64,000 nt of DNA from Candidatus Daviesbacteria bacterium. Its GTDB lineage: Bacteria; Patescibacteriota; Microgenomatia; Daviesbacterales; UBA10151. The position numbers and the translations under genes were made by a program. The stretch is from NCBI GenBank assembly GCA_016187025.1, contig JACPKM010000004.1, forward strand, positions 35,212-99,211. The letters run 5' to 3'. This document shows positions 3,227-34,543 of this stretch, piece after piece; the stretch's first letter is position 1, and each line of letters starts with the position of its first letter. The notes beneath the pieces were generated by a model. The model searched no databases, was not told where the DNA came from, and saw only the letters and a list, made by a program, of their open reading frames with translations.

Positions 3227-3679
3227 TTACTGCAACTCTACAGTTGCACCTGCGGCTGTTAATTTGGTCTTTGCTTCTTCAGCGGTAGCCTTGTTTACTG
3301 ACTCCAAAACCGGTTTTGGAGCAGCCTCTACCAAATCTTTAGCTTCTTTCAAGCCTAAAGTTGGTACAAGTTCTCTCACTGCTTTAATCACTGCAATTTT
3401 ATTGGCGCCTGCGCCCGATAAAATAACATTAAAAGAAGTTTTTTCCTCAACTGGTTCACCTGCTGCAGTACCATTTGAAGGAGCTGCTACAGCGACTGCT
3501 GCTGATGCAGAAACACCAAACTTATCTTCTAATGCATGAACCAAATCAGCTAACTCCAATACAGAGAGTTTTTCGATTGACTCCATGATTTTTTCTAAGT
3601 TAGCAGAAATCTGTTTACCAGCTTTCTTTTCTTCAGCTGGTGACTCTTCGGCTTGTTGGTTTTGTGTATCGTCTGCCAT
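3227..3679 (-). CDS. rplL: 50S ribosomal protein L7/L12
   Basis: Classic L7/L12 sequence ([21 protein letters not shown]...[31 protein letters not shown]...) with a ~25-aa acidic N-terminal extension. Confidence 0.95.
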
Positions 3680-3758
3680 TTGGTTGGGTTGTAGGTTTTA
3701 GGTGGTAGGTGGTAGTTTTCTTATAATTACTACAACCTACTCACTACACACTACAATC

Positions 3759-4322
3759 TTACTGTTCACCTCCCTTCTTCTTTTGAATTTCTGATAACGC
3801 ATATACTAAATTACGTAAATTACCTTGTAAAACTCCGACAATTCCTTTTAATGGAGCAGCTAAAACACCCACCACCTGCCCTCTTAACTCGTTTTTTCCG
3901 GGTAAGCTGGACAGTTGGGTAACTTTGCTTGCAGATAGGGCATCACTACCTAAAAAGCCACCTAAAACCTTGCCAAGCTCGTTATCTTTGAATGTTTTGA
4001 CCAAAATTTTTATAGGAGTAATTTCATCATCATATGCAAACAGGGTGGCGGTAGGGCCGTCTAAGAGGGAATTTTCAACGCTTCGATCTTTCGAAAGGGA
4101 AGCTCCGCTTATTTTCAATTTACAATTTTCAATTGATCTCTGAAGAAGCGTATTCTTAGTAATATTAAACTCGGCATTTTGTTCACGCAGCTTATTCCTT
4201 AGATCAGACAGCTGTTTCATAGTCATGCCTTTGTAATCGGCAAAAACCAAGGCTTTAGCCCTTGTTAGCTTTTCTTGTAATTTTGTAACTGATTCGATCT
4301 TTTGTGCTCGTGTTTTTGGCAT
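3759..4322 (-). CDS. rplJ: 50S ribosomal protein L10
   Basis: L10 family similarity across the full length. It sits upstream of rplL in the conserved order. Confidence 0.93.
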   Translation of the reverse strand: MPKTRAQKIESVTKLQEKLTRAKALVFADYKGMTMKQLSDLRNKLREQNAEFNITKNTLLQRSIENCKLKISGASLSKDRSVENSLLDGPTATLFAYDDEITPIKILVKTFKDNELGKVLGGFLGSDALSASKVTQLSSLPGKNELRGQVVGVLAAPLKGIVGVLQGNLRNLVYALSEIQKKKGGEQ

Positions 4323-6477: not shown

Positions 6478-9400
6478 ATGAATTTTCTTACTGCCTTCAG
6501 GAAGAGGGTTTTTTCTTTTTTCCTGAACCACCGCTTAAGTTTAAGTAAACCTCAGCAAATTGTTTTGATTGCTACAACTGGTTTGTTAATGACATCAGCC
6601 GCAGCATTGGGAGTAAGGGAAATGCTGATTCAATCTCAAACCAGCTTAAAAGCTCAACCAGAATCAAAAGATGTTCTAGCAGCTACCTCAGAAAGATTAA
6701 GGCTTACTGGAAATATCTCATTTAATCTACCAGCCTCATTTAATGATCTGATTAAGCTAAAATCAGGCCAGGTGGTAGAAGGGGTATCGGTGTTTAAGGG
6801 GGCTGTCAAATTCGAAGGGGATGTGCAATCTCTAGAGATTGAAAATGGTACTATCACCGCCTCAACCATCACTGCCTCAAACTTAGTTTACTCTCTTACA
6901 GCTGGGGATGGAATTTCTGTGACTACCGGACAAAGTCCGACTGTCAAAAATACCGGAGTGTTATCTTTGCAATCTAAAACAGGGGCATTAAAGCTTGAAG
7001 AAGGTACGGATATCACAATTGACGGACTTAAGATTACTGATAAATCCACATTATCAACTGTTTATTCAAGAGGAGGGTGTTCCTCATGCATCACAGATGC
7101 AGATGTGGCAGCAGGACTGACTATCTCAGGAGGAACAGTTGATAACTCTCCGATTGGAGCAACTACTGCCTCAACCGGTGCCTTTACTACTTTAACTGCC
7201 TCATCAACCCTTGCTGTGACAGGTAATTTATCAGCTGCAGCACAGGTGTTAGGTAAAAATGGTTCAGCGTCCTCACCCTCATATTCTTTTACCAATGACA
7301 CGGATACCGGTATCTATAGATTCGGAGCCAATTCTTTGGGCATCATTACCGGTGGCTCTGCCACATCCGGTTTAACCATTGATTCATCAGGTAATGTAGG
7401 TATTGGCACCACCTCACCATCTTCTGGTCTAGATGTGGTAGGCAGTGCCAATATTTCAGGTTCTTTAACAGTTTTGGGCAATTTAATAGCTGCCTCTTCC
7501 GGTACCTCAGGTTATTGGCAGAGATCAGGCACAACTATCTCACCATCAACCTCAGGTGATGCCATCACCACATCAGGTAATATTTCTACGTCTGGCTCCG
7601 GTACTATTACATCAAATTCCCTGCTTACTGCATCAAATGGACTCACTTTAACCACTGGGGCTTTAAATTTAACCTCAACTTCTGGTCAGGCAAATCTTGC
7701 TTTAACTGGTAATACAAATGCCTTTAGTATTAATGGATTATTTGGGGTAGATACCACTAGCAATAGAGTTGGCATTGGTACTACTGCTCCAACTACGGCA
7801 TTACAAGTTTTAGGAGGTAATGTTGGCATTGGTACATCCGGAGCAGGAGCTGCATTACAGGTTAATGGGGGAGGATTATTTGGCTGGGGAACAGCCTCTT
7901 CTGCCTTGTCCTCAGGAGCTATCCTGGGAGTAAATGGTAATGTGGGGGTTGGTACCACTTCCCCCATTGGAGCCCTGCATGTTGTAGGACAGTGTGTGGC
8001 TCGGGGGACAAGAATTAGGAAAAGGCGTAAAGGGTCAAGGGGTAAGGGTGAAGATGAATGGGAAGATGTGCCTGTGGAAGATATCAAACCTGATGATGAA
8101 GTATTATCCTTAAATGATACTACTGGTGAATGGGAATGGCATAAAGTAGAAAAAACCTTAAATAAAGGAATCCAGGAAACAATTAAGATTGTTACCCAGT
8201 CAGGCAAATGGATTGAAACCACTGATGAACACCCTTACTTAACTATTGAAAAAGATATCAAACCACTACCTGAATCTGGGAAATTTGAGGTAGATCTTTC
8301 CACCAGAATGGAAAAGAATGCTGATACCTTTGTAGCTATAGCCAACAACAAAGCTGCAGCAGTCATTAAAGTTAGTGTCAAAGATAAACAAAGCTTGAAA
8401 AAACTCTTTGCTAAATCCCCCAGACTGTTTGCTCCCACCCTTTATGCCCTTTGTATTATAGAGATTATTAAAAAGGGTAAGATCAGTCCATCACAACTAA
8501 AGATTGATACTGACTATCTGGGTTACGAAAGAAGAATTGAAAAATTAATTCATAATTTCTATCCGGAGATTGTCATCACTTTTGCGGAAGTTGGTCACGG
8601 AATAGGCTCATATGCGGACAGGGCTGTCTATCAGGCTTTTAGCCAAAAGAAAAAGACCGGGGCCGGCTTGAATCTCTATGGATTCCCGACTGCAGAATGG
8701 TTACACCATGACTGGTTACACGGATCCGCCACCCACACGGTCTTAACAAGCAAAGCCTATCACAAATTTACTGATTTGTCAATGGCCAGCGCTGTCTGGA
8801 AAAAGGTTAAACACCTAAAACCGGGAGATGTGATCGCCACCTCTGCCGGTTGGGAAAAAGTCCAAAATATATACTCTACCGGCAGAAAACAAACCTATGA
8901 CTTACAGATTGAAGGCACACATAACTTTGTAGGCAATGATATTGTTGCCCATAATACATATATTTCCGGTAATTTAGGGATAGGAGTGTCTTCTCCTACC
9001 AGTTTTGCCCTGCAGGTAGCAGGTAATATTGGTCCAAATGTTGATAATTCCTATGATTTAGGCTCAACATCAAATAGATGGAGAACTTTGCATGTAGGTC
9101 CGGGATCAGTGGTTGTCCACAATGATGCAGCAGATACACTTAAGGCTACTTTAGGTTTTACCGGATCAACAGCCCAGCTTATTACAGACTCATCCTCCCC
9201 CTTACAGCTTGTTACCGGTACAAACAACTTAGGATTATATCTAAATACCTCAGGCAATGTGGGTATTGGCAAGACCAATCCAAATTCTGCTTTAAATGTA
9301 ATCGGTAATGTTGGCATTGGTACATCCGGAGCAGGAGCAGCCTTACAGGTAAATGGTGGGGTAGTATTAGGCTGGGGGACTGCATCTGTTGCAGCACCAA

Positions 9401-12400
9401 GCAATGGTCTGGCTATTAATGGCAACCTAGGTATTGGTACCACTTCCACTAATGCCATGTTGGATGTCAGGGGTTCAACCATTATTGCTCCAACCACCAA
9501 TGGTACTACCAATGCCTTAATTGTGAGGGCTGCTCCAGGATCAACAGGCAATATCTTTAATCTAACAGATACAACAGGTTCAACCTCTTACCTTTCTGTC
9601 TCATCAGCCGGGGCCTTAACAGTTGGAGGCTCTACTTTAACAAATTCCGGACTTTTAGCCTCATCCGGAGCCATTAATCTGACCTCTTCTGCCAATGCCA
9701 TTGTAGGTACTGCTGTGGAAGGTGGCTGGACCATGAACTCTAATACTTTCACCTACAGGAGGGTGATGACTGTTGTAAACAATGATGGCTCAAATGCCCT
9801 GCCTTCAAACTATGAAGTGAGTGTCTCTTTATCCGGCTCAACTGCTTCCCAAATCTATTCTAACTCCCAGACAGACTATGATGATTTCAGGATAGCTTAC
9901 TCTACCAATGGCACAACTTTTACAGAAGTTACCAGAAATGTTTCATCCTTTACTTCCTCATCTGTTGCTTTCACCTTCCAAACCCAGGCCTCTATTGCAG
10001 CCTCCGGTTCTACCTCAAACTATTACATCTATTACAAAAACTCTTCTTTAACATGCTCATCCTGTACATATACCGGTAATGTGCAGCTGGATTCTATGGA
10101 TTCATCTGTTGGATCCTGGACTAGTGCTGATACCACTCAGTTTCCCTTAGCTCAGGAAACAGCCTCTATCTATACAGAAGGCACAGGTTCTTTAAAAGCC
10201 TCAGGGACTGTTGATAATATCGGGACTTTCTCAACCACCAACCAAAATGCCCTCTCCGGCGCCAGGACTAACTTTGGATTTAATGCCTCCAGTATTGGAG
10301 GAACTACTTATCTATATGCAGTCGGAGGTTCAACAGACGGAACAGCAGGCAATGCCCAGTCAACTGTATTTAGGACCTCAGCTGCAGCAGCCACCGGCCA
10401 TGTAGCTGCTTGGACAACTAACTCAAACTCTATCTCTGAGGCAAGATTAGATAACTCTGTAGCAGTAGCTACACCACCAGTTGATGGGGGAGATGGAACT
10501 GATGGGGCTATTGATTTAACTAATGGTTCTGGTGCAGGAGGATGTACAGGCACAGGACTTTCCTGGAGTGGATCTACCTGTACTATTGCCACAGCTACCA
10601 AATCTACCTTTAACTTTACAACAATTAATATTCCTTCTGGAACCACTCTAACCACAGATGGGCCAAAAACTACCACAAACTTTGTCACTATTAAAGCAAC
10701 TGGTAACGTAACTGTAGCTGGAACCATTAATTTAGCAGGAAAAGGGTATAGCGCACCTGTAAGCGGCCAAACCGCAGGAAGAGGTCCGGGAGGAGGGGCT
10801 TGTAGCTCATGTCAAGCTGCAGGAGGCGCCGGCCATGGGGGTGCTGGTGGTCAAGGTGGAGGTTACTCTGCTAGAACAGCAGCTGGTGCAACATATACTA
10901 CAGATGATTCTGGTAGCTCAGGCGCAACAGGGCAGGGCGGTGTCGGAGGAGCTGGCGGAGGAGGAATAAAAATTTCAAGCGGGGGTACAGTTATTGTATC
11001 AGGAACAATAAATACCAATGGTTCTAGTGGAACTGGTGATAGCAATACTGGAAGTGGAGGTGGAAGTGGGGGGAGGATTGCATTACAAGGAGGTACTCTT
11101 ACGATTAGCGGATCATTAACTGCAAATGGTGGAAACGGGGCAGATGGCACTCCTTCTGTAAATTATGGAGGGGGAGGTGGAGGTGGAGGAAGGATCACCT
11201 TTGAGTATTCAGGATCTGCCGATACCACTGGTTCAACAATAACTGTAACGGGGGGTAATGGAGGCGCTGGAACATGGACAGCAACTGCTTCAGGCACAGC
11301 TGGTTCTTCAGGAACAAATACATCAACGGCCTCAAGCCCTACTTTGTATGTATTAGGTGGTAAAAATACTTCAGGGACTGCACAGTCCGGGATATCTCAG
11401 GGGACTGTTTCTTCATCAGATGGGTCAGTGGGGGCATTTTCTGCTTCAGGTACTTCTTTATCCCAAGCACTTTATGGGCATACATCTAATGCAATCACCA
11501 TCAGTACTACTAATTATCTGTATGTAATTGGCGGTAATAATGGCACTACTGACCAGACCACTGTCTACAAAGGCTCTTTTTCCGATGCCAATATTTCCTC
11601 TTTTACCACCACTTCCCAGACCCAACTTAGTACAGGTATTTCCTATCATGCTGTGGCAACAGGGAGTATCTCATCAACTAATTATCTTTGGGTAATTGGC
11701 GGGTTAAATGGTTCTACTGCCCAGAGTACAGTTTACAAAGGTACATTTGATGCATCAGGAAACTTAACTTTAACTACCACCTCACAAAATGCTTTGCCCC
11801 AGGGGTTATATGGCCATCAGGCTATCTTTGCCACAGTTGGCTCTAATAACTATCTTTATGTTTATGGCGGGATAACCACAGGCGGGACCAGGCAGACCAC
11901 TGTTTACAAAGCAAGTGTAGATGCATCAGGGAATGTTGGTGCATGGAGTACAGTCGGCCAGACACAGCTATCCACAGCCATCTCCAACTTTGGAGCCTTT
12001 AACTTTACAGATTCTGATTCTAATCAGTATGCATATATAGTTGGCGGTAATACCGGTACTGCCCAAACTGCTGTTACTAAAGCTTCATATTCACCAATTG
12101 ACCAGACAGGCTATTCTGCCTCAAGGACTATTACCTCCAGTAACTGGTCAAACAAAAATGATTTGCAGTACAAAGTCTATTCCTCCAGGACAGGCTCATA
12201 TATGGTGCTGGAATACTCAGAAGATGGTTCTACCTGGCAGACCTGTACCTTTACAGTGTCTAGTGCCAATACCTGGGAAACCAAGACCTGTGATCTGACA
12301 GGTGTGGCTACCACAGGCAGGGATGCTGTGACTAATTTAAGGTTAAGAGTCACCTCCTCAACTACCACTGCCTGGACAGCTTATGTTGATGATATTAATG

Positions 12401-14718
12401 CTGTTACCAATGCCTCAACTATCTCAAACACTGCCTCATCAGGATCTCCACTTTCAGGTGCAGCCAATCTAACCTTAAATGCCCAGGGTACAGGATTAAT
12501 TTTACTAAACTATGATGCAACATCAGGTCTGGCAGGCACCGGAGGATTGGCACTTTACAACGGCGGCACCAGCCCGCTATTTTCTGTAGACAGTAGTGGC
12601 AATGTGGGTATTGGCACTACCTATATATCAGCCAAACTTCAGGTTAAAGGTGCAGGCACCGGAACCGGAATATCATTTATCACTGCAGACTCAAATGGAT
12701 TACACCGCTTTGCCATACTGGATAATGGTAATGTGGGTATTGGTACAACTAATCCATTATCCACTTTCCACATTGGTACAGGGTTGGCCATTGGTTCTAA
12801 CACTTTATCTTTCTCAACCTCAACAGGCAGACTAGGTATTGGTACAACATCTCCCGGTGCCACCTTAGGTATTACAGGTAATCTAGGTATTGGGGCCTCA
12901 TTTGCCAATTCAGCTGCTCCATCATTTGGTTTAGCAGTGCAGGGTAATGTAGGTATCGGGACAACCTCTCCTGATTACCCCTTACATGTCATAGGTAATG
13001 TAGGAATAGGCAGTAGTTTAACTGTGACAGGATTAGGTGTGTTAAATGGTGGCCTGCAAACAACCAATATTAATGCTACTTCTTTAACCACCTCAGGAAA
13101 TGTGGGAGTTGGTGGATCAATCACCGGCTTTGGGGCATTAAATGGCTTAAATGTTACAGGGTTAACAAGTTTAGCAGGGCTAAACGCCAGTGGTAATGTA
13201 GGTATTGGCTCTTCATTAACAGTTACTGGTCTTTCGGTATTAAATGGTGGAATAGCTGCTCCAACGCTATCTTTAACAAACTTGACCTCAGGTGGAGCAT
13301 TGTTTACCGGTCCTAATGGGTTAGTATCACAAAATATACCAAACTACTACTGGGATAATACCAATAACAGATTAGGGATTGGTACCTCTGCACCAGGTTC
13401 TCAGTTGGCGATAATCGGTAATGTAGGTATTGGTACCTCTGGGGCAGGGGCTGCTTTACAGGTTAATGGAGGAGGATTATTTGGCTGGGGGACTGCATCT
13501 ACTGCCCTGTCATCCGGGGCTATATTGGGGGTTAATGGAAATGTGGGTATTGGTACTACCTCTCCTACAGCTTTGTTACAGGTCCAGGGGAGCGGTAGCA
13601 TGCCTTCCTTGCTGGTAACTTCCGGTGGAAATATAGGGATAGGGACTTCTGTGACATCAAACCCCATCACTGTTGGCACAGACGGCTCAACCGGTAATGG
13701 GGCATATCTGTCTACAGGAGGAACGTGGACAAATGGGTCATCCTTTGAATTTAAAGAAAACTTTGAATCTTTAAATAACTTGGATATTCTATCAAAGATT
13801 ATTGAGTTAGATATATCTTCTTGGAACTATAAACTGGAACCGGGCATAAAACACATTGGGCCTGTGGCTGAGCAGTTTTACTCTGTGTTTGGACTGGGAA
13901 ATGATAATAAACATATCTCAACCATTGATCCAGCAGGTATAGCACTGTTAGGAATACAAGGCTTGTCAGGACAGATTAATGATTTAAGAATAAGACTTAA
14001 TGAATCCACCCCTTCTGCCAAGCTATCTTTGGAAGATAAAATAGCTTCACTTGAGGCCAGGATCAAGAATCTGGAATCAAAAGAAGGTACATCTTCTGCA
14101 GAGGCCACATCATCTGCTCAGGAGTCTTCCGCTTCTGCGCTCTTGGCTCAAAGCCCTCAGCTTACCTTAACTCCTCCTGATGTATTACTTGCAACAGGTT
14201 CTGCTACTTTGGCAAATCTAGCTGTTACTTCTGAAGCAACTTTTTCAGGTAAACTTGCAGCATATAACCTAAATGTCTCTGAATCATTTAAAGTATTCGG
14301 GGAAACTTCTCTTGGTAAAACCAGTATTGCGGGGGATGTAAATATAGATGGAACTATGAATATCAATGGTAATTCTTTGTCAGTGATTGGCACACTTTTT
14401 ATACAAAACAGTCCATTTTCCAAGGATATAGATTTGTTTAATGGTAAAGTAAAAATAGATAATACGGGTAATTTAACTGTTCAAAAACTTACAGTTTCCC
14501 AAAAGACCTTGGGGACAGTGACAATTCCTGCAGGGCAGAATCAATTTACAATTTACAATTTACAATTTACAAATAAATCCAAAGTATTTGTGACTCCTGA
14601 AAAACCGGTGGCAATTGGGGTCAGCAAAGACGCTGCCAACTCCCAATTTACTATCCAATTAGACAAAGCCCAAAGCAGTGATTTGAAAGTAGACTGGTGG
14701 ATCGTAGATGTTGAGTGA
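6478..14718 (+). CDS. giant (2746 aa) membrane-anchored fibre-like surface protein with an intein
   Basis: Single long ORF with an N-terminal TM anchor and many GN(V/L)GIGTTSP..L.V.G repeats. It carries an intein (7993-8955), a Gly-rich beta-helix-like region (~10740-11290), 5-6 Kelch-like Y.YV.GG...T.VYK repeats (~11500-12100), a C-terminal peptidase-S74/intramolecular-chaperone-like segment (FKENFESLNNLDILSKIIELDISSWNYKLEPGIKHIGPVAEQFYSVFGLG..., ~13740-14000) and a coiled coil. Confidence 0.85.
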   Translation: MNFLTAFRKRVFSFFLNHRLSLSKPQQIVLIATTGLLMTSAAALGVREMLIQSQTSLKAQPESKDVLAATSERLRLTGNISFNLPASFNDLIKLKSGQVVEGVSVFKGAVKFEGDVQSLEIENGTITASTITASNLVYSLTAGDGISVTTGQSPTVKNTGVLSLQSKTGALKLEEGTDITIDGLKITDKSTLSTVYSRGGCSSCITDADVAAGLTISGGTVDNSPIGATTASTGAFTTLTASSTLAVTGNLSAAAQVLGKNGSASSPSYSFTNDTDTGIYRFGANSLGIITGGSATSGLTIDSSGNVGIGTTSPSSGLDVVGSANISGSLTVLGNLIAASSGTSGYWQRSGTTISPSTSGDAITTSGNISTSGSGTITSNSLLTASNGLTLTTGALNLTSTSGQANLALTGNTNAFSINGLFGVDTTSNRVGIGTTAPTTALQVLGGNVGIGTSGAGAALQVNGGGLFGWGTASSALSSGAILGVNGNVGVGTTSPIGALHVVGQCVARGTRIRKRRKGSRGKGEDEWEDVPVEDIKPDDEVLSLNDTTGEWEWHKVEKTLNKGIQETIKIVTQSGKWIETTDEHPYLTIEKDIKPLPESGKFEVDLSTRMEKNADTFVAIANNKAAAVIKVSVKDKQSLKKLFAKSPRLFAPTLYALCIIEIIKKGKISPSQLKIDTDYLGYERRIEKLIHNFYPEIVITFAEVGHGIGSYADRAVYQAFSQKKKTGAGLNLYGFPTAEWLHHDWLHGSATHTVLTSKAYHKFTDLSMASAVWKKVKHLKPGDVIATSAGWEKVQNIYSTGRKQTYDLQIEGTHNFVGNDIVAHNTYISGNLGIGVSSPTSFALQVAGNIGPNVDNSYDLGSTSNRWRTLHVGPGSVVVHNDAADTLKATLGFTGSTAQLITDSSSPLQLVTGTNNLGLYLNTSGNVGIGKTNPNSALNVIGNVGIGTSGAGAALQVNGGVVLGWGTASVAAPSNGLAINGNLGIGTTSTNAMLDVRGSTIIAPTTNGTTNALIVRAAPGSTGNIFNLTDTTGSTSYLSVSSAGALTVGGSTLTNSGLLASSGAINLTSSANAIVGTAVEGGWTMNSNTFTYRRVMTVVNNDGSNALPSNYEVSVSLSGSTASQIYSNSQTDYDDFRIAYSTNGTTFTEVTRNVSSFTSSSVAFTFQTQASIAASGSTSNYYIYYKNSSLTCSSCTYTGNVQLDSMDSSVGSWTSADTTQFPLAQETASIYTEGTGSLKASGTVDNIGTFSTTNQNALSGARTNFGFNASSIGGTTYLYAVGGSTDGTAGNAQSTVFRTSAAAATGHVAAWTTNSNSISEARLDNSVAVATPPVDGGDGTDGAIDLTNGSGAGGCTGTGLSWSGSTCTIATATKSTFNFTTINIPSGTTLTTDGPKTTTNFVTIKATGNVTVAGTINLAGKGYSAPVSGQTAGRGPGGGACSSCQAAGGAGHGGAGGQGGGYSARTAAGATYTTDDSGSSGATGQGGVGGAGGGGIKISSGGTVIVSGTINTNGSSGTGDSNTGSGGGSGGRIALQGGTLTISGSLTANGGNGADGTPSVNYGGGGGGGGRITFEYSGSADTTGSTITVTGGNGGAGTWTATASGTAGSSGTNTSTASSPTLYVLGGKNTSGTAQSGISQGTVSSSDGSVGAFSASGTSLSQALYGHTSNAITISTTNYLYVIGGNNGTTDQTTVYKGSFSDANISSFTTTSQTQLSTGISYHAVATGSISSTNYLWVIGGLNGSTAQSTVYKGTFDASGNLTLTTTSQNALPQGLYGHQAIFATVGSNNYLYVYGGITTGGTRQTTVYKASVDASGNVGAWSTVGQTQLSTAISNFGAFNFTDSDSNQYAYIVGGNTGTAQTAVTKASYSPIDQTGYSASRTITSSNWSNKNDLQYKVYSSRTGSYMVLEYSEDGSTWQTCTFTVSSANTWETKTCDLTGVATTGRDAVTNLRLRVTSSTTTAWTAYVDDINAVTNASTISNTASSGSPLSGAANLTLNAQGTGLILLNYDATSGLAGTGGLALYNGGTSPLFSVDSSGNVGIGTTYISAKLQVKGAGTGTGISFITADSNGLHRFAILDNGNVGIGTTNPLSTFHIGTGLAIGSNTLSFSTSTGRLGIGTTSPGATLGITGNLGIGASFANSAAPSFGLAVQGNVGIGTTSPDYPLHVIGNVGIGSSLTVTGLGVLNGGLQTTNINATSLTTSGNVGVGGSITGFGALNGLNVTGLTSLAGLNASGNVGIGSSLTVTGLSVLNGGIAAPTLSLTNLTSGGALFTGPNGLVSQNIPNYYWDNTNNRLGIGTSAPGSQLAIIGNVGIGTSGAGAALQVNGGGLFGWGTASTALSSGAILGVNGNVGIGTTSPTALLQVQGSGSMPSLLVTSGGNIGIGTSVTSNPITVGTDGSTGNGAYLSTGGTWTNGSSFEFKENFESLNNLDILSKIIELDISSWNYKLEPGIKHIGPVAEQFYSVFGLGNDNKHISTIDPAGIALLGIQGLSGQINDLRIRLNESTPSAKLSLEDKIASLEARIKNLESKEGTSSAEATSSAQESSASALLAQSPQLTLTPPDVLLATGSATLANLAVTSEATFSGKLAAYNLNVSESFKVFGETSLGKTSIAGDVNIDGTMNINGNSLSVIGTLFIQNSPFSKDIDLFNGKVKIDNTGNLTVQKLTVSQKTLGTVTIPAGQNQFTIYNLQFTNKSKVFVTPEKPVAIGVSKDAANSQFTIQLDKAQSSDLKVDWWIVDVE
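7993..8955 (+). other. intein (321 aa) inserted in the giant surface protein; +1 extein residue Thr
   Basis: Starts with Cys (CVARGTRIR...), has block B TDEHPYL, and C-terminal blocks F/G TYDLQIEGTHNFVGNDIVAHN followed by Thr. The flanking exteins continue the NVGIGTTSP repeat pattern. The central ~200 aa has no LAGLIDADG or HNH motifs that I can see. Confidence 0.8.
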
Positions 14719-19616: not shown

Positions 19617-20501
19617 TTAGACACTGGTTAAATCCAGTTTCACTCCAGCACCCATGGTGGGTGAAAGGGTTAGTTTTTTGACTCTGGTTTTTCCAACAGT
19701 TTGTACCAGTGTTTTTATATTTGCAGCAATCTCTTCACTTGCCTGATCCACTTTGCCAACAGATAAATGCAGCACAGCAGCTTTATTCTCGGTCTTGTAT
19801 TCAGTTTTACCAGCTTGGAAGCTTGCAACAGCCTTTTTTAATCCGTCAGCTGACGGACTTGTAATGGTGCCGTTTTTAGGATTTGGCATAAGGCCTCTTG
19901 GGCCTAAAATCCGGGCTACTTTAGCAAGCTTTGGCATCCATTCAGGGGTTGTTACTATGATGTCAAAATCTACCTTACCTTTATTAATCTCCTCAATTAC
20001 CCCATCTGTTCCTGCTGTATCTGCACCGGACTGATCTGCATCTTTACCAAAAGCTAAAATTCTCAGTTTTTTACCAGCTGTAAAGGGAAGTGAAACCAGA
20101 CCTCTGATCCCAGTTTTGTCAGTGTTAATATGAGCTTCCATGGTTGCGCTAAATTTAGTATATGAGGATTTTTTGACTAGCTCAATAGCTTGCCCAACAG
20201 GATAAAACTTGGTTTTATCTATCTCAGCTGTGGCTTCTTGATATTTTTTTGATCTAACCTTTTTGGATATAGGTACTTTAGATTTGGCTTTCTTTTTGGT
20301 TTCTGGTTTTTCTTCTTTTTCTTGCTCCGTAGTCTGTTTGACCTCTTTTTTCTGAGGTGTTTGCTCCTCAACCCCTAGTTCTGCATTAATTTTGGCAATT
20401 AAATCCTCTCCTGGTTTTTGTTCAGGTTTTTTGCTTTCTGTTTTCTTGACTTCTTTTTGAGGAAGGGAATCATCTATAACAATAGTCTTTGTTTTACCCA
20501 C
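19617..20501 (-). CDS. rplA: 50S ribosomal protein L1 with a ~95-aa Lys/Glu-rich N-terminal extension
   Basis: C-terminal 200 aa is typical L1 ([18 protein letters not shown]...[17 protein letters not shown]...). The N-terminus is a low-complexity KE-rich tail. Confidence 0.93.
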
Positions 20502-21572: not shown

Positions 21573-21824
21573 TTAGGTTTGGTTGATCAGGAAGGTAGTA
21601 AGTAAAGTTAGCAAATAGTCCAGTCCTCCTAACACACCTCCAGATACCAAGGTTACTAAAATTACTAAAATAGTATACCTTATGGTTTGCTCACGGGAAG
21701 GCCAGGCTACTTTATCTAACTCTTCCTTTACCTCCTTAAAAAAGCTAATTATTTTGGACATTAAAAAAAGGTCGAATTTCCGACCCACTTTGTCAAGTAT
21801 AACAAAAGGGTCAGAATTTGACAA
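21573..21824 (-). CDS. secE: preprotein translocase subunit SecE
   Basis: 83 aa with FFKEVKEELDKVAWPSREQ followed by a single C-terminal TM, immediately upstream of nusG. Confidence 0.8.
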   Translation of the reverse strand: MSNSDPFVILDKVGRKFDLFLMSKIISFFKEVKEELDKVAWPSREQTIRYTILVILVTLVSGGVLGGLDYLLTLLTTFLINQT

Positions 21825-22185
21825 GGGTTGGTTTTATCTCCATTTTGCCGAAGAATTTGAGTTTTAAAAGTTTTTCATCTGCAGTTAAAAAAGCATCACA
21901 TTCAGCTGTTGAGCCGGAAAGCAGTTGCACATTGTCTTCAAAGTCTGCAGTTGGGCCTTCTAGCGCTCTGTAAGCAGTATCACCATCAAACGATATAAGG
22001 TGAAACCTAGCCACAATGTTAGTCAATCTATCATATGGAATTTTCTTTTTTGTAACATACAATAAAATATGGATAGAAAGAGGGGACAGGAAAAGATCAT
22101 GGTTTTCCAGGTTCTCTTCTACAGCAGAACGTCGTTGTTCTACCAGATCAATGAAGATATTTGTATCAAGAAAGACCCTTGCCAT
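21811..22185 (-). CDS. vapC: PIN-domain toxin (VapC family)
   Basis: N-terminal FLDTNIFID PIN signature and conserved acidic residues. It overlaps the antitoxin gene by 20 nt. Confidence 0.8.
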   Translation of the reverse strand: MARVFLDTNIFIDLVEQRRSAVEENLENHDLFLSPLSIHILLYVTKKKIPYDRLTNIVARFHLISFDGDTAYRALEGPTADFEDNVQLLSGSTAECDAFLTADEKLLKLKFFGKMEIKPTLVKF

Positions 22186-22426
22186 ATTTTTTCATTAGAT
22201 GAGCACGATAGATCTTTTCTCTTTGAGCATAAGTTGTTTTGGGGAGTTTAAGGTTTTTCACAAGTTTTTCAAATTTTTTGGCATCAAAAGGTTTAGGTTC
22301 ATAAATGGGCATAATCTGTCCAATTACCTTGGAACGGTGAATCAGACGTAAAGTCCCTCCCCCTTTTAAGGTTTTAACAAGCTTGCTGGATTTTGTTCTA
22401 AGTTCGGTAGTAGTGATATATTGCAT
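22166..22426 (-). CDS. Phd/YefM-family antitoxin
   Basis: 86 aa. N-terminal YITTTELRTKSSKLV resembles Phd/YefM. It lies upstream of and overlaps the PIN toxin. Confidence 0.6.
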   Translation of the reverse strand: MQYITTTELRTKSSKLVKTLKGGGTLRLIHRSKVIGQIMPIYEPKPFDAKKFEKLVKNLKLPKTTYAQREKIYRAHLMKKYGKGLS

Positions 22427-22431
22427 ATTTC

Positions 22432-22455
22432 AAATGTACACTTAAATATACATTT
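22432..22455. promoter_or_regulatory. inverted repeat AAATGTA-N10-TACATTT just upstream of the antitoxin start; candidate autoregulatory operator
   Basis: Perfect 7-bp inverted repeat at 22432-22438 / 22449-22455, 6-29 nt upstream of the antitoxin ATG on the minus strand. Confidence 0.3.
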
Positions 22456-22551
22456 TGTCAAGGAGGACAGGTGTAGAGATAAAGAGGGGTTAGGTTATTC
22501 CAGACTGAATTTAAGATCAAAATATGGTATACTATAAGGTATATTATACCT

Positions 22552-23667
22552 ATGGCTGTTGAAGTAACTGCACTTTCCAGAAGAAGTTTTTTAGGGATTG
22601 ATTCTGCTTTAGAGGCAGCTAATGACTTTGCTGGAAAAAGCAGAGGAAAACAAGGTCGAAGACCAATTCGTTTATCTTCAGGGTCAACCCCTCCACCTTC
22701 TCGACCAACACCTCCTGATTGGAGGTCAGTAGTTACTTCCAGAAGAGTAGCCCTTGGTGTAACGGCAGGTGGAGCTGCTTTGATTTTACTTCAACCTTGG
22801 CAATGGTTTGTTCGCAGACCTGTACCACCAGACGCTATCCCATCAGTAGTGCCACCAACTCCAGACGCAGAATTAGATCAGGCTTTAATCCGATTAGCCG
22901 AAGCAGAAGTATTTAATTTGGCTTATTATCCAAAAAATTTACGGCAAAAGATGGTCTCTCATTGGAAGTTTGGTCATACAAGTTTAGTCAACTACTCTAA
23001 GCCTAATAGAGAGTTATTTTATTTGGAGTTCAAGCCTGCTCAGCCTCGTGATCAGATGATCAACTTGGCTGCAACTAACATCCAACTCCGCAGGGTTGAG
23101 ACAGCTCCAAACCAAACCTCCCTGGTGCTTTCCCTTCAAGGAGAGTATGTACGATCTCTAGGTGTGGGTATACCACGAGATATTGAAAGAAGGCTTGAAG
23201 AGATGAATTTTGAACATGAAGCCATAGTCAGCCTTGCTTACATAAATGCACTGACCACTATTGCTGGAGCCCTTGGCCTTGATTTAAAAGCTGATAGCCC
23301 TAAGTCTCCAAAAGAAAATGAATTAATCTTAATGGTAAAAGCATATAACCCTGCCATTGTGGCTATGGCAGAAGCAGTAGCAGAAATAAATGATTATCTC
23401 TTAACAGAACCTTTAGTGGATAAAGATCCATCCTCGGGGCAAACAGTTTGGTCTCCTCAGAATTTACCTTTGATAGCACAAGGGATGGTTTTTATGGAAG
23501 GTGGATTACACCATTTGGTAGATTCAGCCATTGGTTCTGCTTTAAAAGGTATACCTGATCTTGAAGTTTTTGCAGGAAGGTATAAGAGCCTAGGGGAGAT
23601 ACCAAACTCTGATCAATATTATCAAAAAATCAAAGAGCATTATCAAAAACATCCGCCAGTTACGTGA
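22552..23667 (+). CDS. hypothetical protein, Pro-rich N-terminal region with SRRSFLG (twin-arginine-like) motif and one hydrophobic segment
   Basis: 371-aa ORF with coding-like composition and GC (~45%) above the local mean. No recognisable catalytic motifs. Confidence 0.5.
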   Translation: MAVEVTALSRRSFLGIDSALEAANDFAGKSRGKQGRRPIRLSSGSTPPPSRPTPPDWRSVVTSRRVALGVTAGGAALILLQPWQWFVRRPVPPDAIPSVVPPTPDAELDQALIRLAEAEVFNLAYYPKNLRQKMVSHWKFGHTSLVNYSKPNRELFYLEFKPAQPRDQMINLAATNIQLRRVETAPNQTSLVLSLQGEYVRSLGVGIPRDIERRLEEMNFEHEAIVSLAYINALTTIAGALGLDLKADSPKSPKENELILMVKAYNPAIVAMAEAVAEINDYLLTEPLVDKDPSSGQTVWSPQNLPLIAQGMVFMEGGLHHLVDSAIGSALKGIPDLEVFAGRYKSLGEIPNSDQYYQKIKEHYQKHPPVT

Positions 23668-29677: not shown

Positions 29678-29747
29678 TGGTTAAAAAAATTCCTATCCTA
29701 TATAGATTAATATAGCAGAAAACTGATTATAGCTGTATTATTGATAT

Positions 29748-30476
29748 ATGATCCGGTTTTTGCCCATTGGTATCATAGCAATTCTGGTTATAAGTGGACT
29801 TGTTTATTTTAGATTTTTTTACATTAAAGATAGTTTAGAAGAACCACAACAAAGAGAAGTTCCAAAAGAAGTTCCGTTTGATACGCTCTTAACCAAAGAT
29901 CCGGGTGGAGTAACAGATAATCTAAATATCTTAGCTACCCAAATTTTGAATTTAAAATCTGCCAATGAAAATCTAGTTAAAACAGCAGATAGTAAAAACG
30001 CTGATTTGGAAAGAAGGATTAAGGCCCTTGAGGCCTCGGTTACCCAGCTTCAGGGACAAGTTAATAGTTCATCTACCACTGCTCAGTCCTCAACCCAGAC
30101 TACAACATCAGAAAGTAAGTTTCCAGTCTATATTCCTTTGGGATCTGCTGGAACAAGCACAGATCAAAACTGGTATAGTATCCCGGGATTTGAGGTTTCT
30201 CTTGATCCAGCTGAGTATAGCGGTTATGCCAGTATGCAGCTTGAGATAAACATGAGAATGATTGAAAAAGCTGGAACAGCATATGCAAGGCTTTACAACT
30301 CAACTGATGGATCAGCCACTTCACCAGAGGTATCAACCACACAGGATACTTTTCAGCTTTTGGCTTCTGGGACCTTTAAATTACCAAGCAGTAGAAAAAG
30401 TTATAAACTACAGCTTAAAACCTCACAAGGAAAAGAAATTCATATCCAAAACGCCAGGATTAAAGTAAACTTTTAG
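29748..30476 (+). CDS. membrane-anchored coiled-coil protein, unknown function
   Basis: N-terminal TM, heptad-like region (LERRIKALEASVTQLQGQV) and a C-terminal beta-rich domain. Confidence 0.4.
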   Translation: MIRFLPIGIIAILVISGLVYFRFFYIKDSLEEPQQREVPKEVPFDTLLTKDPGGVTDNLNILATQILNLKSANENLVKTADSKNADLERRIKALEASVTQLQGQVNSSSTTAQSSTQTTTSESKFPVYIPLGSAGTSTDQNWYSIPGFEVSLDPAEYSGYASMQLEINMRMIEKAGTAYARLYNSTDGSATSPEVSTTQDTFQLLASGTFKLPSSRKSYKLQLKTSQGKEIHIQNARIKVNF

Positions 30477-31395
30477 GATTACTTTTTACACTGAAAGGTA
30501 AGCCTGAATTAGCTGGTAAATTGGCATAATCGTAAGGCGAGAAGGTAAGGTGTAGAGTATCGGCCGGGTTATTTTTTTGCTCCATAGCTTCATAATAAAG
30601 CACGTGAGGAGCTTTGAGCCCCCGCCAAACTAAAGTGTCTGCTACAGTGTGGCAAACTGCAGTTTTTGCAAAAGCTGTTAAAGCGGCAGCGTTGATTGGC
30701 TGTTGAGGTTTTAATTGAAAAACAGCCGAAACATCGATAAGGCCTCCGCATAAAGTTTCAAGTAGCTCCCTGCCGGCGATCTGCTCTGATTTGGTAAACA
30801 TATGATCATATATTCCTGCTTGGGCTTCCTGAGCCGAGGGGACGGGTATGTACAACCAATAAGAGTCTTGGGTTCTATATAGTAAAGTAGGCCTGATTCT
30901 TTGCACCCAGGGAGGTGGGGTAAGGTTAGTTGGTGTTAAGACCACAGCCAGCTCTTGCATATTCCTCTTGGGAAGCATGAATGCCGTAAAAACGCGGTTG
31001 TTAAAGTTACCTTGTAAATCAGGTGAACCTGCCCTAACTTGTGCTAGATACCCTAAGCTTTGTTCTATGCTTGAAGGGTTAACACCTAAGTTCTGATCAA
31101 AGTTGAACCATCTTAGATGAGTAGTTTGCACTCTTATCTCGCCTGATGAGTGTATAGAACCTGCTTGAGCAGGGTATATTTCAGAGATTCCCGGTTGTAA
31201 AGAGCGTGCTCGGGTATCTTTTGAAACAAGAGTTGGGGTAGGTTTTGAGGCAGGTTTTGGAGATTTTCCCGTATGTTGGTCTCCTGATACAGGAGTGCAG
31301 GCTAAAATAAGTGCAAGGCCAGCTGATCTCAGCAAAAGTGAGGCTGTTTGGACTATCTTTTCTTTGGGTGATGCTGAACGTTTTTCAATATACAT
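30460..31395 (-). CDS. putative lipoprotein, unknown function
   Basis: Possible lipobox (LALILAC) after a positively charged N-terminus. GC ~47%. Confidence 0.45.
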   Translation of the reverse strand: MYIEKRSASPKEKIVQTASLLLRSAGLALILACTPVSGDQHTGKSPKPASKPTPTLVSKDTRARSLQPGISEIYPAQAGSIHSSGEIRVQTTHLRWFNFDQNLGVNPSSIEQSLGYLAQVRAGSPDLQGNFNNRVFTAFMLPKRNMQELAVVLTPTNLTPPPWVQRIRPTLLYRTQDSYWLYIPVPSAQEAQAGIYDHMFTKSEQIAGRELLETLCGGLIDVSAVFQLKPQQPINAAALTAFAKTAVCHTVADTLVWRGLKAPHVLYYEAMEQKNNPADTLHLTFSPYDYANLPANSGLPFSVKSNPKSLL

Positions 31396-31456
31396 GAAGA
31401 AAATATTCTAACAGAAAGCATAAAATTAATCAACTATAGGGTGTAAATATAGTTAT

Positions 31457-33094
31457 TTAATTCGGGGTTTGAAGCTGCCTAATCTGCTCTTGTAACCACA
31501 CAATCTGCTCTGCTATGTCAGAGGGAGGAAGGGGAACATCAACCTCTCCTTCAGCAGAAGATGTTAGCTGTTCTACTAGTCTTTGGTTTGCCCAGGCTGC
31601 ATTTTTGTCCATCCAATCAGCCGTAAAACCTCTTAGCTCTTTCAAGACCTCCCTTGTTGCAGGCATAATTTTTACCCCTTTTTTGGCAAACTGCTCAGAT
31701 GCTTTATCTGAGATATCCCATACAAGCTCTTCAAAAGGTTTTCCAGCCCTAGCTTCTACTAGAGATGATAAGTCTCGGCGGTTTTGCGTTGGCAATATCA
31801 TTAGTAAAGCTCTAATTTGTTGATCTAATACCTGATGTTGCGCAGGATAATGCTCTTTTAAAACTGCCCATATACCTGTTGCAAAACTATTGCTCCCTTC
31901 CATTACATCTAGAAGGTTACTGAGCATCCCTATGTGGTTATCAGCCAATGGAGCTGTGACAGTGTCAATAACTTGAGCCCTAGTTAGTATCTTTTCTAAA
32001 TATAGCGCTAATATTTCAGGGCTGGGGGTAGTTTCCTGTCTGTCTGCAAAAACCTGGATATGGTTTCTTCTGTTGCGGTCCGGGTGTATCTTCCTTCTTT
32101 CCAGCTCTTCTACCAGCTGATCACCTTCAGCTTTTAACTTAAGGATTGTTTGTGGATCAAGGGGGATGGGATGGTATTCTCCGGTAGCTTCTAAAAAGAT
32201 AACTAGGTTTAAAAACGAGTCAATAGGTGCAGGAAATGCTTGTCTTCTTCCTTCTTCAATTGCTGCAATAGTCTTGAGCAGAGCCTGCTTATTTAACCCT
32301 ACCAGGTCATTAAACTCTAAAGTTCTACACTTCAGTGCCTGTCCAATTACTTCTAGCTCATGCTCATCTTTGTCCCATTCAGCTTTGACTATATCATCAT
32401 CTGGAGCCTGGCCCGATTCTTCCGCTTCTTTAAACCATACCGGTTTATTTTCCAAACTGGTAGTTGGAGGATCATTTCGGTTGTACTGAAACAGTCTTGA
32501 AAAATACACATGCTTCACTGCCCAAAACCGCCAATCCTCCATGCCAAATCCTTTAGTGGTAAAACATGCAGGGGGATTATCAAGTACGTTTCTAAATACG
32601 CTATCAAGGCCAAATTTTCTAGCCAGTGGTCCAACTGCCAGATCTCCTAACGCTTCGGCTTTTCTGGTTCTGAGAAGCTCTGTAAACGTAGTAGGTGTAG
32701 CGGGAGAGTTTAAGAGGCAGTTAACAATAAAAGCTTTCTGGAAAAAAGCAAAAGCTTCTTGGTTTGATCCGCCTCTTGATATGATCTCATTCAGAATTTG
32801 GGCGTAAGCTGCAGAGGCGGTAATACGCTCGCTGATCTGTTTTCTTTGTCCACTCAGTGATTCTTTTTGAGCTTTAACTTGTTCTCCTAGCCCATGTATT
32901 TGGTTATCAAAAACATGAGTATAAAGGTCATCTATACCGTCAAACTCCCGACTAAACCTGCTTGCAGCAGCAACCTGCACCCTAGCATTTCTAAGGGTGT
33001 CTCCACTAAAGCGAAATAAACTTAATCGGGTAGGTTGGTCTGGACCCACCCTTGCTCGTGTTAATTCTTCTTCAGCAATAGCCATGGGTAGCAA
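31457..33094 (-). CDS. hypothetical cytoplasmic protein (545 aa), unknown function
   Basis: Long ORF with no TM or signal peptide and GC ~45-48% against ~38-40% locally. I recognise no motifs. Confidence 0.5.
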   Translation of the reverse strand: MLPMAIAEEELTRARVGPDQPTRLSLFRFSGDTLRNARVQVAAASRFSREFDGIDDLYTHVFDNQIHGLGEQVKAQKESLSGQRKQISERITASAAYAQILNEIISRGGSNQEAFAFFQKAFIVNCLLNSPATPTTFTELLRTRKAEALGDLAVGPLARKFGLDSVFRNVLDNPPACFTTKGFGMEDWRFWAVKHVYFSRLFQYNRNDPPTTSLENKPVWFKEAEESGQAPDDDIVKAEWDKDEHELEVIGQALKCRTLEFNDLVGLNKQALLKTIAAIEEGRRQAFPAPIDSFLNLVIFLEATGEYHPIPLDPQTILKLKAEGDQLVEELERRKIHPDRNRRNHIQVFADRQETTPSPEILALYLEKILTRAQVIDTVTAPLADNHIGMLSNLLDVMEGSNSFATGIWAVLKEHYPAQHQVLDQQIRALLMILPTQNRRDLSSLVEARAGKPFEELVWDISDKASEQFAKKGVKIMPATREVLKELRGFTADWMDKNAAWANQRLVEQLTSSAEGEVDVPLPPSDIAEQIVWLQEQIRQLQTPN

Positions 33095-33313
33095 TTATAC
33101 AGATACAAGAGGCTAAAAGCAAAAATTAGGGGTAGCACTTTGTAAGACAAATTGGTAGGATTAAGTTGAGAGATACAAGAGAATAAGCTGAGGATTTACT
33201 ATGGCAGGTGTAACTATCCCAAGGTTGAGTAGAAAAGATATAAGGGTGGGGAACATCCCCAGAATTTATGTGAGAAAATACCCTAACTCCATGTATTACA
33301 CCTAACATTGAGT

Positions 33314-33387
33314 TGGCAGGCCTGCAGGGATTCGAACCCCGAAAAACGGTTTTGGAGACCGTTGTGATACCATTTCACCACAGGCCT
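33314..33387 (-). tRNA. tRNA-Trp (anticodon CCA), CCA 3' end encoded
   Basis: Reverse complement folds as a cloverleaf. Acceptor AGGCCTG/CAGGCCT (7 bp), D-stem GTGA/TCAC, anticodon stem ACGGT/ACCGT with loop CTCCAAA, T-arm CGGGG-TTCGAAT-CCCTG, discriminator G, then CCA. Confidence 0.85.
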
Positions 33388-33406
33388 AATTAAGATAACT
33401 TGGTAA

Positions 33407-33435
33407 ATTGTACGCGAAAAGGTTGATAGATTCAA
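33407..33435 (-). promoter_or_regulatory. candidate promoter for tRNA-Trp
   Basis: On the minus strand TTGAAT (33435-33430), a 17-nt spacer, then TACAAT (33412-33407), about 19 nt upstream of the mature tRNA 5' end. Confidence 0.35.
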
Positions 33436-33589
33436 CGAGACAAGAAATTTTATATCTTGGCCTCGTTGTGAGAAGTCTGCTTTCTGCAGTGTTGACAAAA
33501 TTTACTCAAAGCAAGTTTATCTTTTGTATTTATCACGTTTTTCTCAGTAGTGTAATTTTTGATTTTACAAACTGAACACTGTAATCCTG

Positions 33590-34543
33590 TTAAGATCCGG
33601 TTTCCTTTTTTTGCCACGGAAGTGATTTTACATTATTATGGACAACTTTTGCAACCGTCTCCAAATGAGCAAATTTTTTTACCATCCAGTTTGAGTATGT
33701 AAACTTATAAAGTACTAGAGTCATAAAGAAAAAAACAGTTGCATAAACAGCTCCTATTAATACATCAACTGCATAATGTTCCCCAAGATAAACTATAGAG
33801 AGCCACACTCCTGCTACATAAGGGCTAAACCATAAGGCTCTAATACCAAAAAAATAAAGGGATAGAAGTAGTACCAGTAATGGATATGCTGCATGCAAAG
33901 AAGGTATAGCTGCCACAGGATTAGGATTAAACTGATGATAGATAGTAGGTAAATGAAACTTGTCAGGAAAAAGGTTAGTGGATTTATCCATAATTTTATA
34001 AACCTTTGGCAGCAGATTTTCATTGCTTGCCATCCAAGGAGGAGCAGCTGGATAGGATAAATATGTTACCCACCCTGCATATGAAAGCAGCAGTATTGCC
34101 ACAGTAAATTTTTTAAAGTGCGCCCGGTTATAAATCCAGAGAATATATCCAAAAGCCAAAGGCAGGGCAAAATGGAGAAAGTAAAAAACAGTAGCAACAA
34201 AATCAAGAAAACCTAATTTATCAGGATTATAAAACATAGCTTGTAATGTCAAAGTTGGTACTTGCCCAAAGAGCCATTTATCAGCCTCAATTAATTCATT
34301 AATATGCACCCTTCCTGCTAAATTATCAGCAAAGCCCCGCAAGAAATCATAAGAAAGTAAAATAAATAAAAAGGGGAGCCAGTCAAACAAAAAAGCCCTG
34401 GTTTTTTTAATAAGGAGGCTTCCTAATAGTAGAACAAAAGCATATCTGTCTGGGGCAATACCAATTCCTTGCCAGATCATCAAAGCAGTCATTGCCAGAA
34501 TATATGCAATAAAAAGTGAAATATTAAATAATTTATGCTTCAT
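33590..34543 (-). CDS. PAP2-superfamily membrane protein (inositol-phosphotransferase/AUR1-like)
   Basis: Multi-TM protein with PSLHAAYP and YLGEHYAVDVLIGA motifs, matching the PAP2 signature. Confidence 0.6.
   Translation of the reverse strand: MKHKLFNISLFIAYILAMTALMIWQGIGIAPDRYAFVLLLGSLLIKKTRAFLFDWLPFLFILLSYDFLRGFADNLAGRVHINELIEADKWLFGQVPTLTLQAMFYNPDKLGFLDFVATVFYFLHFALPLAFGYILWIYNRAHFKKFTVAILLLSYAGWVTYLSYPAAPPWMASNENLLPKVYKIMDKSTNLFPDKFHLPTIYHQFNPNPVAAIPSLHAAYPLLVLLLSLYFFGIRALWFSPYVAGVWLSIVYLGEHYAVDVLIGAVYATVFFFMTLVLYKFTYSNWMVKKFAHLETVAKVVHNNVKSLPWQKKETGS

Follow-up and report, generated by a model that had tools for sequence, protein, structure and literature searches.

How do bacteria of the candidate phyla radiation (CPR), whose genomes are tiny, gain accessory genes? 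Little is known about this, and the question is raised by a 64,000-nucleotide (nt) stretch of a Candidatus Daviesbacteria genome (GenBank assembly GCA_016187025.1, contig JACPKM010000004.1, positions 35,212 to 99,211; hereafter the window). Between a gene for a membrane/coiled-coil protein of 242 amino acids (aa), u242, and a tRNA-Trp gene, the window carries two minus-strand genes, u545 and u311. An earlier reading of the sequence without database searches (the sequence-only reading) had proposed them to be a horizontally acquired cassette of elevated guanine-plus-cytosine (GC) content, in which a lipoprotein (u311) and a soluble protein (u545) might form a toxin/immunity or defence module. 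Comparison with related loci supports a lineage-specific insertion at the 3' end of tRNA-Trp, and we think it probable that the block is accessory cargo in a Daviesbacteria variable-gene hotspot, made up of independently promoted, unpaired genes.

A variable slot between u242 and tRNA-Trp

Relatives of the locus were gathered by a NusG scan of species-representative genomes and by a metagenome scan with an alignment of u242 homologs, which together gave more than 70 related loci. The Daviesbacteria relatives share a conserved backbone in the order PBP1A - GH5-like - GH1 - u242(+) - slot - tRNA-Trp(-) - rpmG, and beyond rpmG, tRNA-Thr and M50 also follow in relatives from the genome and metagenome collections. 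Both flanks were captured in 29 loci (26 tabulated, plus L086, L005 and L007), with u242 on one side (and GH1 beyond it where the contig reaches) and tRNA-Trp on the other.

The slot is empty in eight loci on Daviesbacteria-like contigs (L096, L116, L125, L127, L132, L143, L156 and L159), where the u242 stop lies 0-9 nt from the tRNA 3' end. Among them is the closest relative, L096 (identity 62% for u242, 80% for PBP, 79% for GH1, 79% for PAP2 and 85% for DUF475), and at the junction where L096 has a tight abutment of u242 and the tRNA gene, the window has 2,837 nt. Other relatives hold 0.36-5.2 kb of unrelated cargo at the same site, including MazE+PIN, Phd+PIN, PemK/MazF, Fic, GIY-YIG, metallo-beta-lactamase (MBL)-fold hydrolases and a PIN+antitoxin pair. 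No relative of u545, u311 or u371 (a gene from a second insertion, described below) was found in the 67 metagenomic loci carrying u242.

The sequence-only reading had grouped u242 with the cassette. Its product has an N-terminal transmembrane helix, a coiled coil, a Ser/Thr linker and a beta-rich C-terminal domain ending in ARIKVNF, and its homologs (32-62% identity, 70+ loci) always lie between GH1 and the tRNA-Trp side. Since u242 is conserved in place in every relative, it belongs to the syntenic backbone and is not part of the cassette. The same comparison explains the 17-nt convergent overlap of u242 and u311, which we reproduced at 30460-30476. The last codons and stop of u311 are antisense to the conserved u242 end, ARIKVNF and stop, and in the relative L086 a gene unrelated to u311, P0006, ends at the same TAA, antisense to IKVNF and stop, with an identical 17-nt overlap (L086 1786-1802). 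Because P0006 ends at the homologous stop, the overlap is a by-product of reading into a conserved neighbour.

L086, the second-closest relative by u242 identity, has the order tRNA-Trp - 125 nt - P0006 - convergent u242 homolog (44% identity), with no u311; P0006 is 27% identical to u545. Either members of the u545 family entered the slot on two occasions, or a copy present in the ancestor has disappeared from L096 and other relatives; independent gains are favoured because of the tight empty junctions.

Taken together, the conserved backbone, the empty sites and the varied cargo, with no integrase, describe an integrase-free variable hotspot whose cargo here is the two genes, and support the view that u545 and u311 are a lineage-specific block inserted at the tRNA-Trp 3' end. 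What stands of the proposed acquired cassette is thus a lineage-specific insertion, with eight empty sites and unrelated cargo elsewhere, and not conserved presence in all relatives; no att repeat or integrase was found, and the case from composition is weak.

Base composition and the ancestral alternative

The GC content of 45-48% first given for the two genes was overstated: we computed 43.6% for u311 and 42.9% for u545 against a window mean of 38.5% and 35-40% in the neighbours, an excess of +1.7 to +1.9 standard deviations (sd). Equally long windows are at least as GC-rich in 9% of cases, and several other window genes reach 42-44%. GC at third codon positions (GC3) is 0.337 for u311 and u545 alike, or +1.2 sd relative to the 53 open reading frames (ORFs) of the window (0.300 +/- 0.031), and about 75% of the GC excess is held by codon positions 1 and 2, that is, by amino-acid composition. 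Synonymous codon usage is mildly atypical (-0.065 and -0.072 versus -0.004 +/- 0.036; about -1.8 sd). The codon-model coding scores of the two genes (0.125 and 0.148) lie inside the host range of 0.175 +/- 0.052, and in each the annotated frame is the best of six. u311 and u545 are real genes and their block is slightly GC-rich; that much of the compositional case holds, but with host-like GC3 and coding score the anomaly is weak, so that composition alone is no proof of transfer or foreign origin. Codon usage and GC3 this near to the host values mean that the block is old and ameliorated, came from a similar donor, or is native.

A native origin would fit an alternative that we judge unlikely, in which a u545-type gene was already present beside tRNA-Trp in the common ancestor with L086, evolved fast and was lost in most Daviesbacteria, with no horizontal transfer at all. 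Host-like codon usage and GC3 speak for it, as do the L086 family member in the same slot and orientation behind a similar TATAAT-N8-ATG promoter, and the lack of mobility genes, an att repeat, and phage or plasmid matches. It would, however, need repeated clean deletions, given that L096 and seven other lineages have a tight, remnant-free junction; none of the 67 metagenomic u242 loci has a family member or a u311 homolog; the cargo at the site in other lineages is unrelated; and when homology was tested between the intergenic DNA upstream of u545 and that upstream of P0006, none was found.

u545 belongs to a small family with a predicted fold not seen in the PDB

None of u242, u311 and u545 was matched in Pfam, NCBIfam, PADLOC or PHROGs (in PADLOC, none at E <= 1); the sequence-only reading had recognised no motifs in the latter two. 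A word-indexed homology search with u545 and a profile search with alignment A1 returned self-matches only. A full HMMER scan of 1.84 billion representatives with u545 found 55 relatives at E <= 1e-3 and 27 at E <= 1e-10, which align full-length at 21-28% identity. With 55 full-length relatives u545 is not an orphan, and the remote homology search suggested earlier for this protein has led to a small uncharacterised family. W185, W217 and E364 are invariant in the family, and an N-terminal PTxLxLF(R)F motif is conserved.

AlphaFold2 (AF2) with a 54-sequence alignment gave an all-helical model of u545 with a predicted local distance difference test (pLDDT) score of 92.1 and a predicted template modelling (pTM) score of 0.84; the pLDDT of the single-sequence model was 37. 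No fold relative of the u545 model was found in the PDB or among viral folds, and a PDB sequence-profile search with A1 was also empty. u545 is a cytoplasmic protein, all-alpha in this model and with a confidently predicted fold not seen in the PDB, and by its sequence it is a member of a small undescribed family, known here from contigs of Microgenomates-like (CPR) type. The genes of this family stand alone, in varied surroundings that are rich in housekeeping genes and have about 40% GC; as to how related these contexts are, NusG of L094 is 66% and DUF475 of L090 71% identical to that of the window. Across about ten family contexts no neighbouring gene is conserved, and neither a small gene of antitoxin type nor a relative of u311 was found.

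Of ten family genes that were examined, nine, among them u545 of the window, have a TATAAT-like box upstream of the ATG at a distance of 6-12 nt and lack a Shine-Dalgarno sequence. u311 likewise has such a box (31405-31410) upstream of its ATG and no Shine-Dalgarno sequence, within a promoter candidate (31405-31433) found by a consensus scan in which the count of promoter-like sites in the region, this one included, is not above that in shuffles. The closeness of the box to the ATG, together with the lack of a Shine-Dalgarno sequence, suggests that u545-family genes are transcribed from their own promoters as leaderless transcripts, and that the u311 mRNA may be leaderless too.

Two further observations concern u545. 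A 2,157-aa protein, P0009, matches its residues 453-506 in 17 separate stretches (E 2e-27), which points either to repeats of this helical hairpin making up the protein or to an artefact of coiled-coil sequence. Within the population from which the window comes, three Logan contigs differ from the window by four substitutions within 13 nt of u545 (32042-32054), which cause V348E, D351E and one synonymous change and are the sole differences over the 5-12.6 kb compared; a micro-inversion as their cause was tested and ruled out.

Most family members carry a probable RelE/ParE-like domain

The 54 family members are for the most part longer than u545: 49 are 607-691 aa long owing to an extra C-terminal domain of about 115 aa with the consensus GNLxGW...KxKRGxVRIFYxxDxxxKxIxFFxHQKKAxxY, while u545 of the window and four others (503-524 aa) stop where this domain would begin. 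Pfam ParE_toxin matched three of the 54 members with a best E of 5e-4, below the gathering score; YoeB from the PDB matched the extra domain at E 0.18; and hhalign of the domain against E. coli RelE gave E 0.021 over 27 columns, in the K52/K54/R61 register. The three matches are weak and below curated thresholds, and all fall in one register. An NCBIfam scan of the long homologs gave no RelE, ParE or YoeB match. Membership of the extra C-terminal domain in the RelE/ParE superfamily is, from these alignments, probable but not proven. As no separate antitoxin gene lies nearby, regulation in cis by the large N-terminal body is plausible.

u311 and u545 are not a conserved pair

u311 is identical to the NCBI entry 'hypothetical protein HYW42_03485, Candidatus Daviesbacteria bacterium'. 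A word-indexed search of 5.8e9 proteins returned self-matches only, no homolog was found in the fetched loci, phages, plasmids or viral contigs, and a PDB sequence-profile search was also empty. The N-terminus has a hydrophobic stretch ending in LALILAC, with the hydropathy maximum at residues 18-34, followed by a Pro/Lys/Thr-rich linker and then by a globular region, roughly 240 aa long, in which two more Cys residues occur. The signal region, ...LLLRSAGLALILAC-TPVSG, fits a relaxed lipobox, with an n-region of 23 aa from the ATG, which is long, and an Arg 10 residues before the Cys. These features are compatible with a lipoprotein, and we take u311 to be a species-specific predicted exported protein, probably of that kind. 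When u311 and u371 were tested for a relation to the u545 family or to its RelE-like domain, none was found.

Could u311 and u545 act together, as a module of two genes serving toxin/immunity, effector/chaperone or defence functions? They are neighbours on one strand, with 61 nt between them, the homologs of u545 have a RelE/ParE-like domain, and the slot often houses toxin-antitoxin genes in relatives. Against this, a u311 homolog stands beside none of about ten u545-family members and was found nowhere else, in L086 the family member is alone in the slot, u311 is unrelated to the family and to its RelE-like domain, each gene has a separate promoter-like element, PADLOC has no match, and u545 of the window lacks the putative toxin domain. 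We therefore regard such a module as quite improbable; the pairing of lipoprotein and soluble protein in a toxin/immunity module is not supported, since u311 has no homolog anywhere searched. What is left of the defence or toxin idea is indirect (the RelE/ParE-like domain in most homologs and the toxin-antitoxin genes that fill the slot in relatives), and the copy in the window is without that domain.

No trace of an integrase

The inserted block ends at 33313 and the tRNA gene starts at 33314, so that the block directly adjoins the 3' end of that gene, and close relatives lack the block. In addition, six of the eight contexts that were informative have a tRNA gene no more than 1.5 kb from the u545-family gene. 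These points would suit a classical integrase-mediated island, or a remnant of a phage or an integrative and conjugative element (ICE), with tRNA-Trp as attB. Several results speak against such an origin. An att-like duplication of the tRNA 3' end, which the sequence-only reading had suggested looking for, was not found: even when up to 3 mismatches are allowed, the 25-nt segment at the tRNA 3' end occurs in the window just once, in the tRNA itself, in a search that cores shorter than about 12 nt would escape. No repeats were found at the block boundaries. Pfam gave no integrase or recombinase domain in the block genes or in the neighbours (GH1, u242, rpmG and PAP2), and no integrase-sized ORF is present in the slot cargo inspected in relatives (8 of 44 slot ORFs scanned with Pfam). 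The block has no similarity to phages and plasmids (tblastn) or to IMG/VR viral contigs, and its length is just 2.8 kb. An integrase island is thus largely refuted, and we give it slightly less credence even than the two-gene module.

The tRNA genes next to family members are, as listed for L086, L087, L090, L091, L094 and the window, Trp, Trp, Ser/Arg, Leu, Arg and Arg; as a post hoc observation, the proximity appears to exceed what tRNA density would lead one to expect. Rfam found the tRNA as its sole match in the region, and literature searches turned up nothing specific to this locus.

That the two genes are chance ORFs or decayed pseudogenes in a non-coding spacer is hardly credible: u311 has no homolog and neither protein has a known domain, but 311 and 545 codons run uninterrupted at a GC content of about 43%, no other of the six frames scores better than the annotated one, whose score is in the host range, the block is identical or nearly so in contigs of four further sequencing runs (L001-L004), and for u545 this reading is refuted by the 55 full-length relatives and the model with a pLDDT of 92.

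Comparison with known systems

Chromosomal hotspots of accessory and defence genes that are flanked by core genes have been described in Enterobacteria and Pseudomonas pangenomes. The present locus resembles them in its common conserved flanks, some empty sites, small varied cargo rich in toxin-antitoxin genes, and no self-mobility genes. It differs in that the host belongs to the CPR and has a genome of just about 1 Mb, that one flank is a tRNA 3' end within the rpmG - tRNA-Trp - secE - nusG neighbourhood, and that the cargo is two orphan genes with no recognised defence system. Islands integrated at tRNA genes by a tyrosine integrase (e.g. at tRNA-Trp or tRNA-Leu) are likewise located exactly at the tRNA 3' end, missing from close relatives and slightly off in GC, whereas the block here is 2.8 kb long and has no integrase, att duplication or phage/ICE genes.

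With RelE/ParE type II toxins, and with fusions of the type of CapRel, a single-chain (fused) toxin-antitoxin defence protein, the long u545 homologs share a C-terminal end of about 115 aa that aligns with ParE_toxin, YoeB and RelE (motif KxKRGxxRIFY..D...K.I.FF.HQKK...Y). They differ in the N-terminal body of about 510 aa, with its predicted fold absent from the PDB, in matches that stay below curated thresholds, in the lack of the domain in the window protein and, from type II toxins, in having no adjacent small antitoxin gene in the family contexts inspected. Colicin-like and polymorphic toxins combine a long helical body with a C-terminal RNase of the BECR fold, and the long members are similarly built from a helical N-terminal part and a small C-terminal RelE-like (BECR-fold) domain. 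In contrast to those toxins, the C-terminal domain is the same across the aligned long members and not polymorphic, no downstream immunity gene is conserved, and the long members have no recognisable secretion or trafficking domain; a polymorphic toxin with an immunity gene was rejected.

A proposed explanation for the locus

We propose that the hotspot is the junction of the tRNA-Trp 3' end with the convergent, conserved u242, that the two abutted ancestrally, and that small cargoes, in many cases type II toxin-antitoxin genes, have since been acquired there, different ones in different lineages. Insertion would probably have taken place by recombination through the conserved flanks after DNA uptake, or by illegitimate insertion. 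In this species the slot holds two genes promoted independently of each other, which are not a conserved pair.

For the long family members, the RelE/ParE-like domain may be a putative mRNA interferase, and the helical body could act on it in cis, as the regulating or neutralising (sensor) part of one polypeptide of the toxin-antitoxin or abortive-infection type. u545 of the window might then derive from such a protein without keeping the effector, and be an orphan remnant with an antitoxin-like or immunity role, or else have been repurposed. This idea, that the helical body regulates or neutralises the RelE-like domain in cis and that the window copy has lost its effector, is offered tentatively, as something possible and somewhat doubtful. 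A wider conjecture, for which we would claim a good deal less, is that the family constitutes new single-chain RelE-type toxins restricted to CPR/Microgenomates, in which the helical body of about 510 aa might sense a trigger (e.g. phage) and gate the mRNA interferase; effector-less copies might then serve as decoys or anti-addiction immunity, and tRNA-adjacent, integrase-free slots could be the CPR equivalent of defence islands.

Several points weigh against the explanation that we prefer, cargo in a hotspot with a toxin-like family behind it. That L086 has a family member in this very slot could reflect a gene present in the ancestor and lost elsewhere; codon usage and GC3 of the block are near host values; the RelE/ParE assignment rests on three weak, sub-threshold matches; u545 of the window is without that domain (Pfam also being empty), so that a function can be suggested for it by association only; and no conserved partner or immunity gene was found.

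Variable hotspots beside core genes and tRNAs are already known; what is new is the instance in a CPR genome, as a cleanly bounded, integrase-free insertion hotspot with empty and filled states over 29 contigs, together with a protein family that is structurally novel as far as the models go. An apparent orphan, u545, now stands in an uncharacterised family that is usually fused to a RelE/ParE-like domain and can be put to the test as a candidate fused toxin-regulator. As regards the window, the cassette is real and ordinary in kind, we infer the acquisition route and the functions of both genes, and the practical result is modest; the u545 copy lacks the sole interpretable domain of its family, though that family is predicted to be structurally novel.

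Layout of the locus and gene calls

The features of the locus are collected in Table 1. The ORF positions of the sequence-only reading (242, 311 and 545 aa) were all reproduced, and so was the distance of about 220 nt to tRNA-Trp, which is 219 nt from the TTG start of u545 and 228 nt from the ATG. The ATG is likely the true start, and gene callers chose it in each of four assemblies made independently from this population.

Table 1. Features of the u242 to rpmG region (positions in the window)
Feature	Position	Strand	Description
u242	29748-30476	+	242 aa; its stop is the left-hand boundary of the insertion
u311	30460-31395	-	311 aa; last 5 codons and stop antisense within the u242 3' end
u545	31457-33094	-	545 aa counted from TTG 33094; 542 aa from ATG 33085 (31457-33085)
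tRNA-Trp(CCA)	33314-33387	-	ARAGORN; Rfam tRNA 65.7 bits; the insertion is bounded on the right by its 3' end
rpmG	33450-33617	-	ribosomal protein L33, 55 aa, GTG start; from translation; same position in relatives
Inserted block	30477-33313	n/a	2,837 nt, from the u242 stop to the tRNA-Trp 3' end
TATAAT -10-like box	33094-33099	-	8 nt upstream of the u545 ATG; no Shine-Dalgarno; read from the sequence
Promoter-like TTGATT-17-TAGAAT with TG	31405-31433	-	within the 61 nt that separate u545 from u311, 9 nt before the u311 ATG; consensus scan

Read along the minus strand, the order is M50 - tRNA-Thr - DUF475 - tRNA-Thr - PAP2 - rpmG - tRNA-Trp, then u545 and u311, then u242(+) - GH1 - GH5-like membrane protein - PBP1A - ASCH(+) - u371(+) - antitoxin - PIN, and finally secE - nusG - rplK - rplA. 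The frame of the slot is the rpmG - tRNA-Trp ... secE - nusG cluster; rpmG and tRNA-Trp form a conserved unit that is normally found ahead of secE-nusG. rpmG was below the threshold of the ORF list and overlaps the PAP2 3' end by 28 nt.

Other variable positions in the window

A second lineage-specific insertion lies between ASCH and secE (21811-23667), where relatives have 71-238 nt. It contains u371 (22552-23667, plus strand, 42% GC), whose 371-aa product has two motifs of twin-arginine type, SRRSFLG and SRRVALG, ahead of a hydrophobic stretch, and gave only self-matches in the fetched loci. The insertion also has a PIN toxin with an 86-aa antitoxin (21811-22426, minus strand). Homologs of this PIN/antitoxin pair lie in or beside the tRNA-Trp slot in L099, L117, L153, L152 and L157, so the module moves between slots.

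The intergenic position between u242 and GH1 is a second variable slot, which is empty in the window (70 nt, 29678-29747). Elsewhere it holds, with products named by reading the sequence, a conserved secreted protein of about 230 aa (L005 2984-3661 and L007 2652-3350), a Phd/Doc-like pair (L064 3149-3792) and a 297-aa sigma-like protein (L010 2581-3474).

Lastly, the ribosomal-protein cluster of the window is split, with rplJ-rplL (3227-4322) about 15 kb from rplA (19617-20501). The gap holds genes for a dockerin-domain protein, an LPG_synthase_TM protein and ATP-synthase alpha/beta, as well as a giant ORF of 2,746 aa (6478-14718, 43.6% GC), in which a domain for intein splicing and a Peptidase_S74 chaperone domain were recognised.

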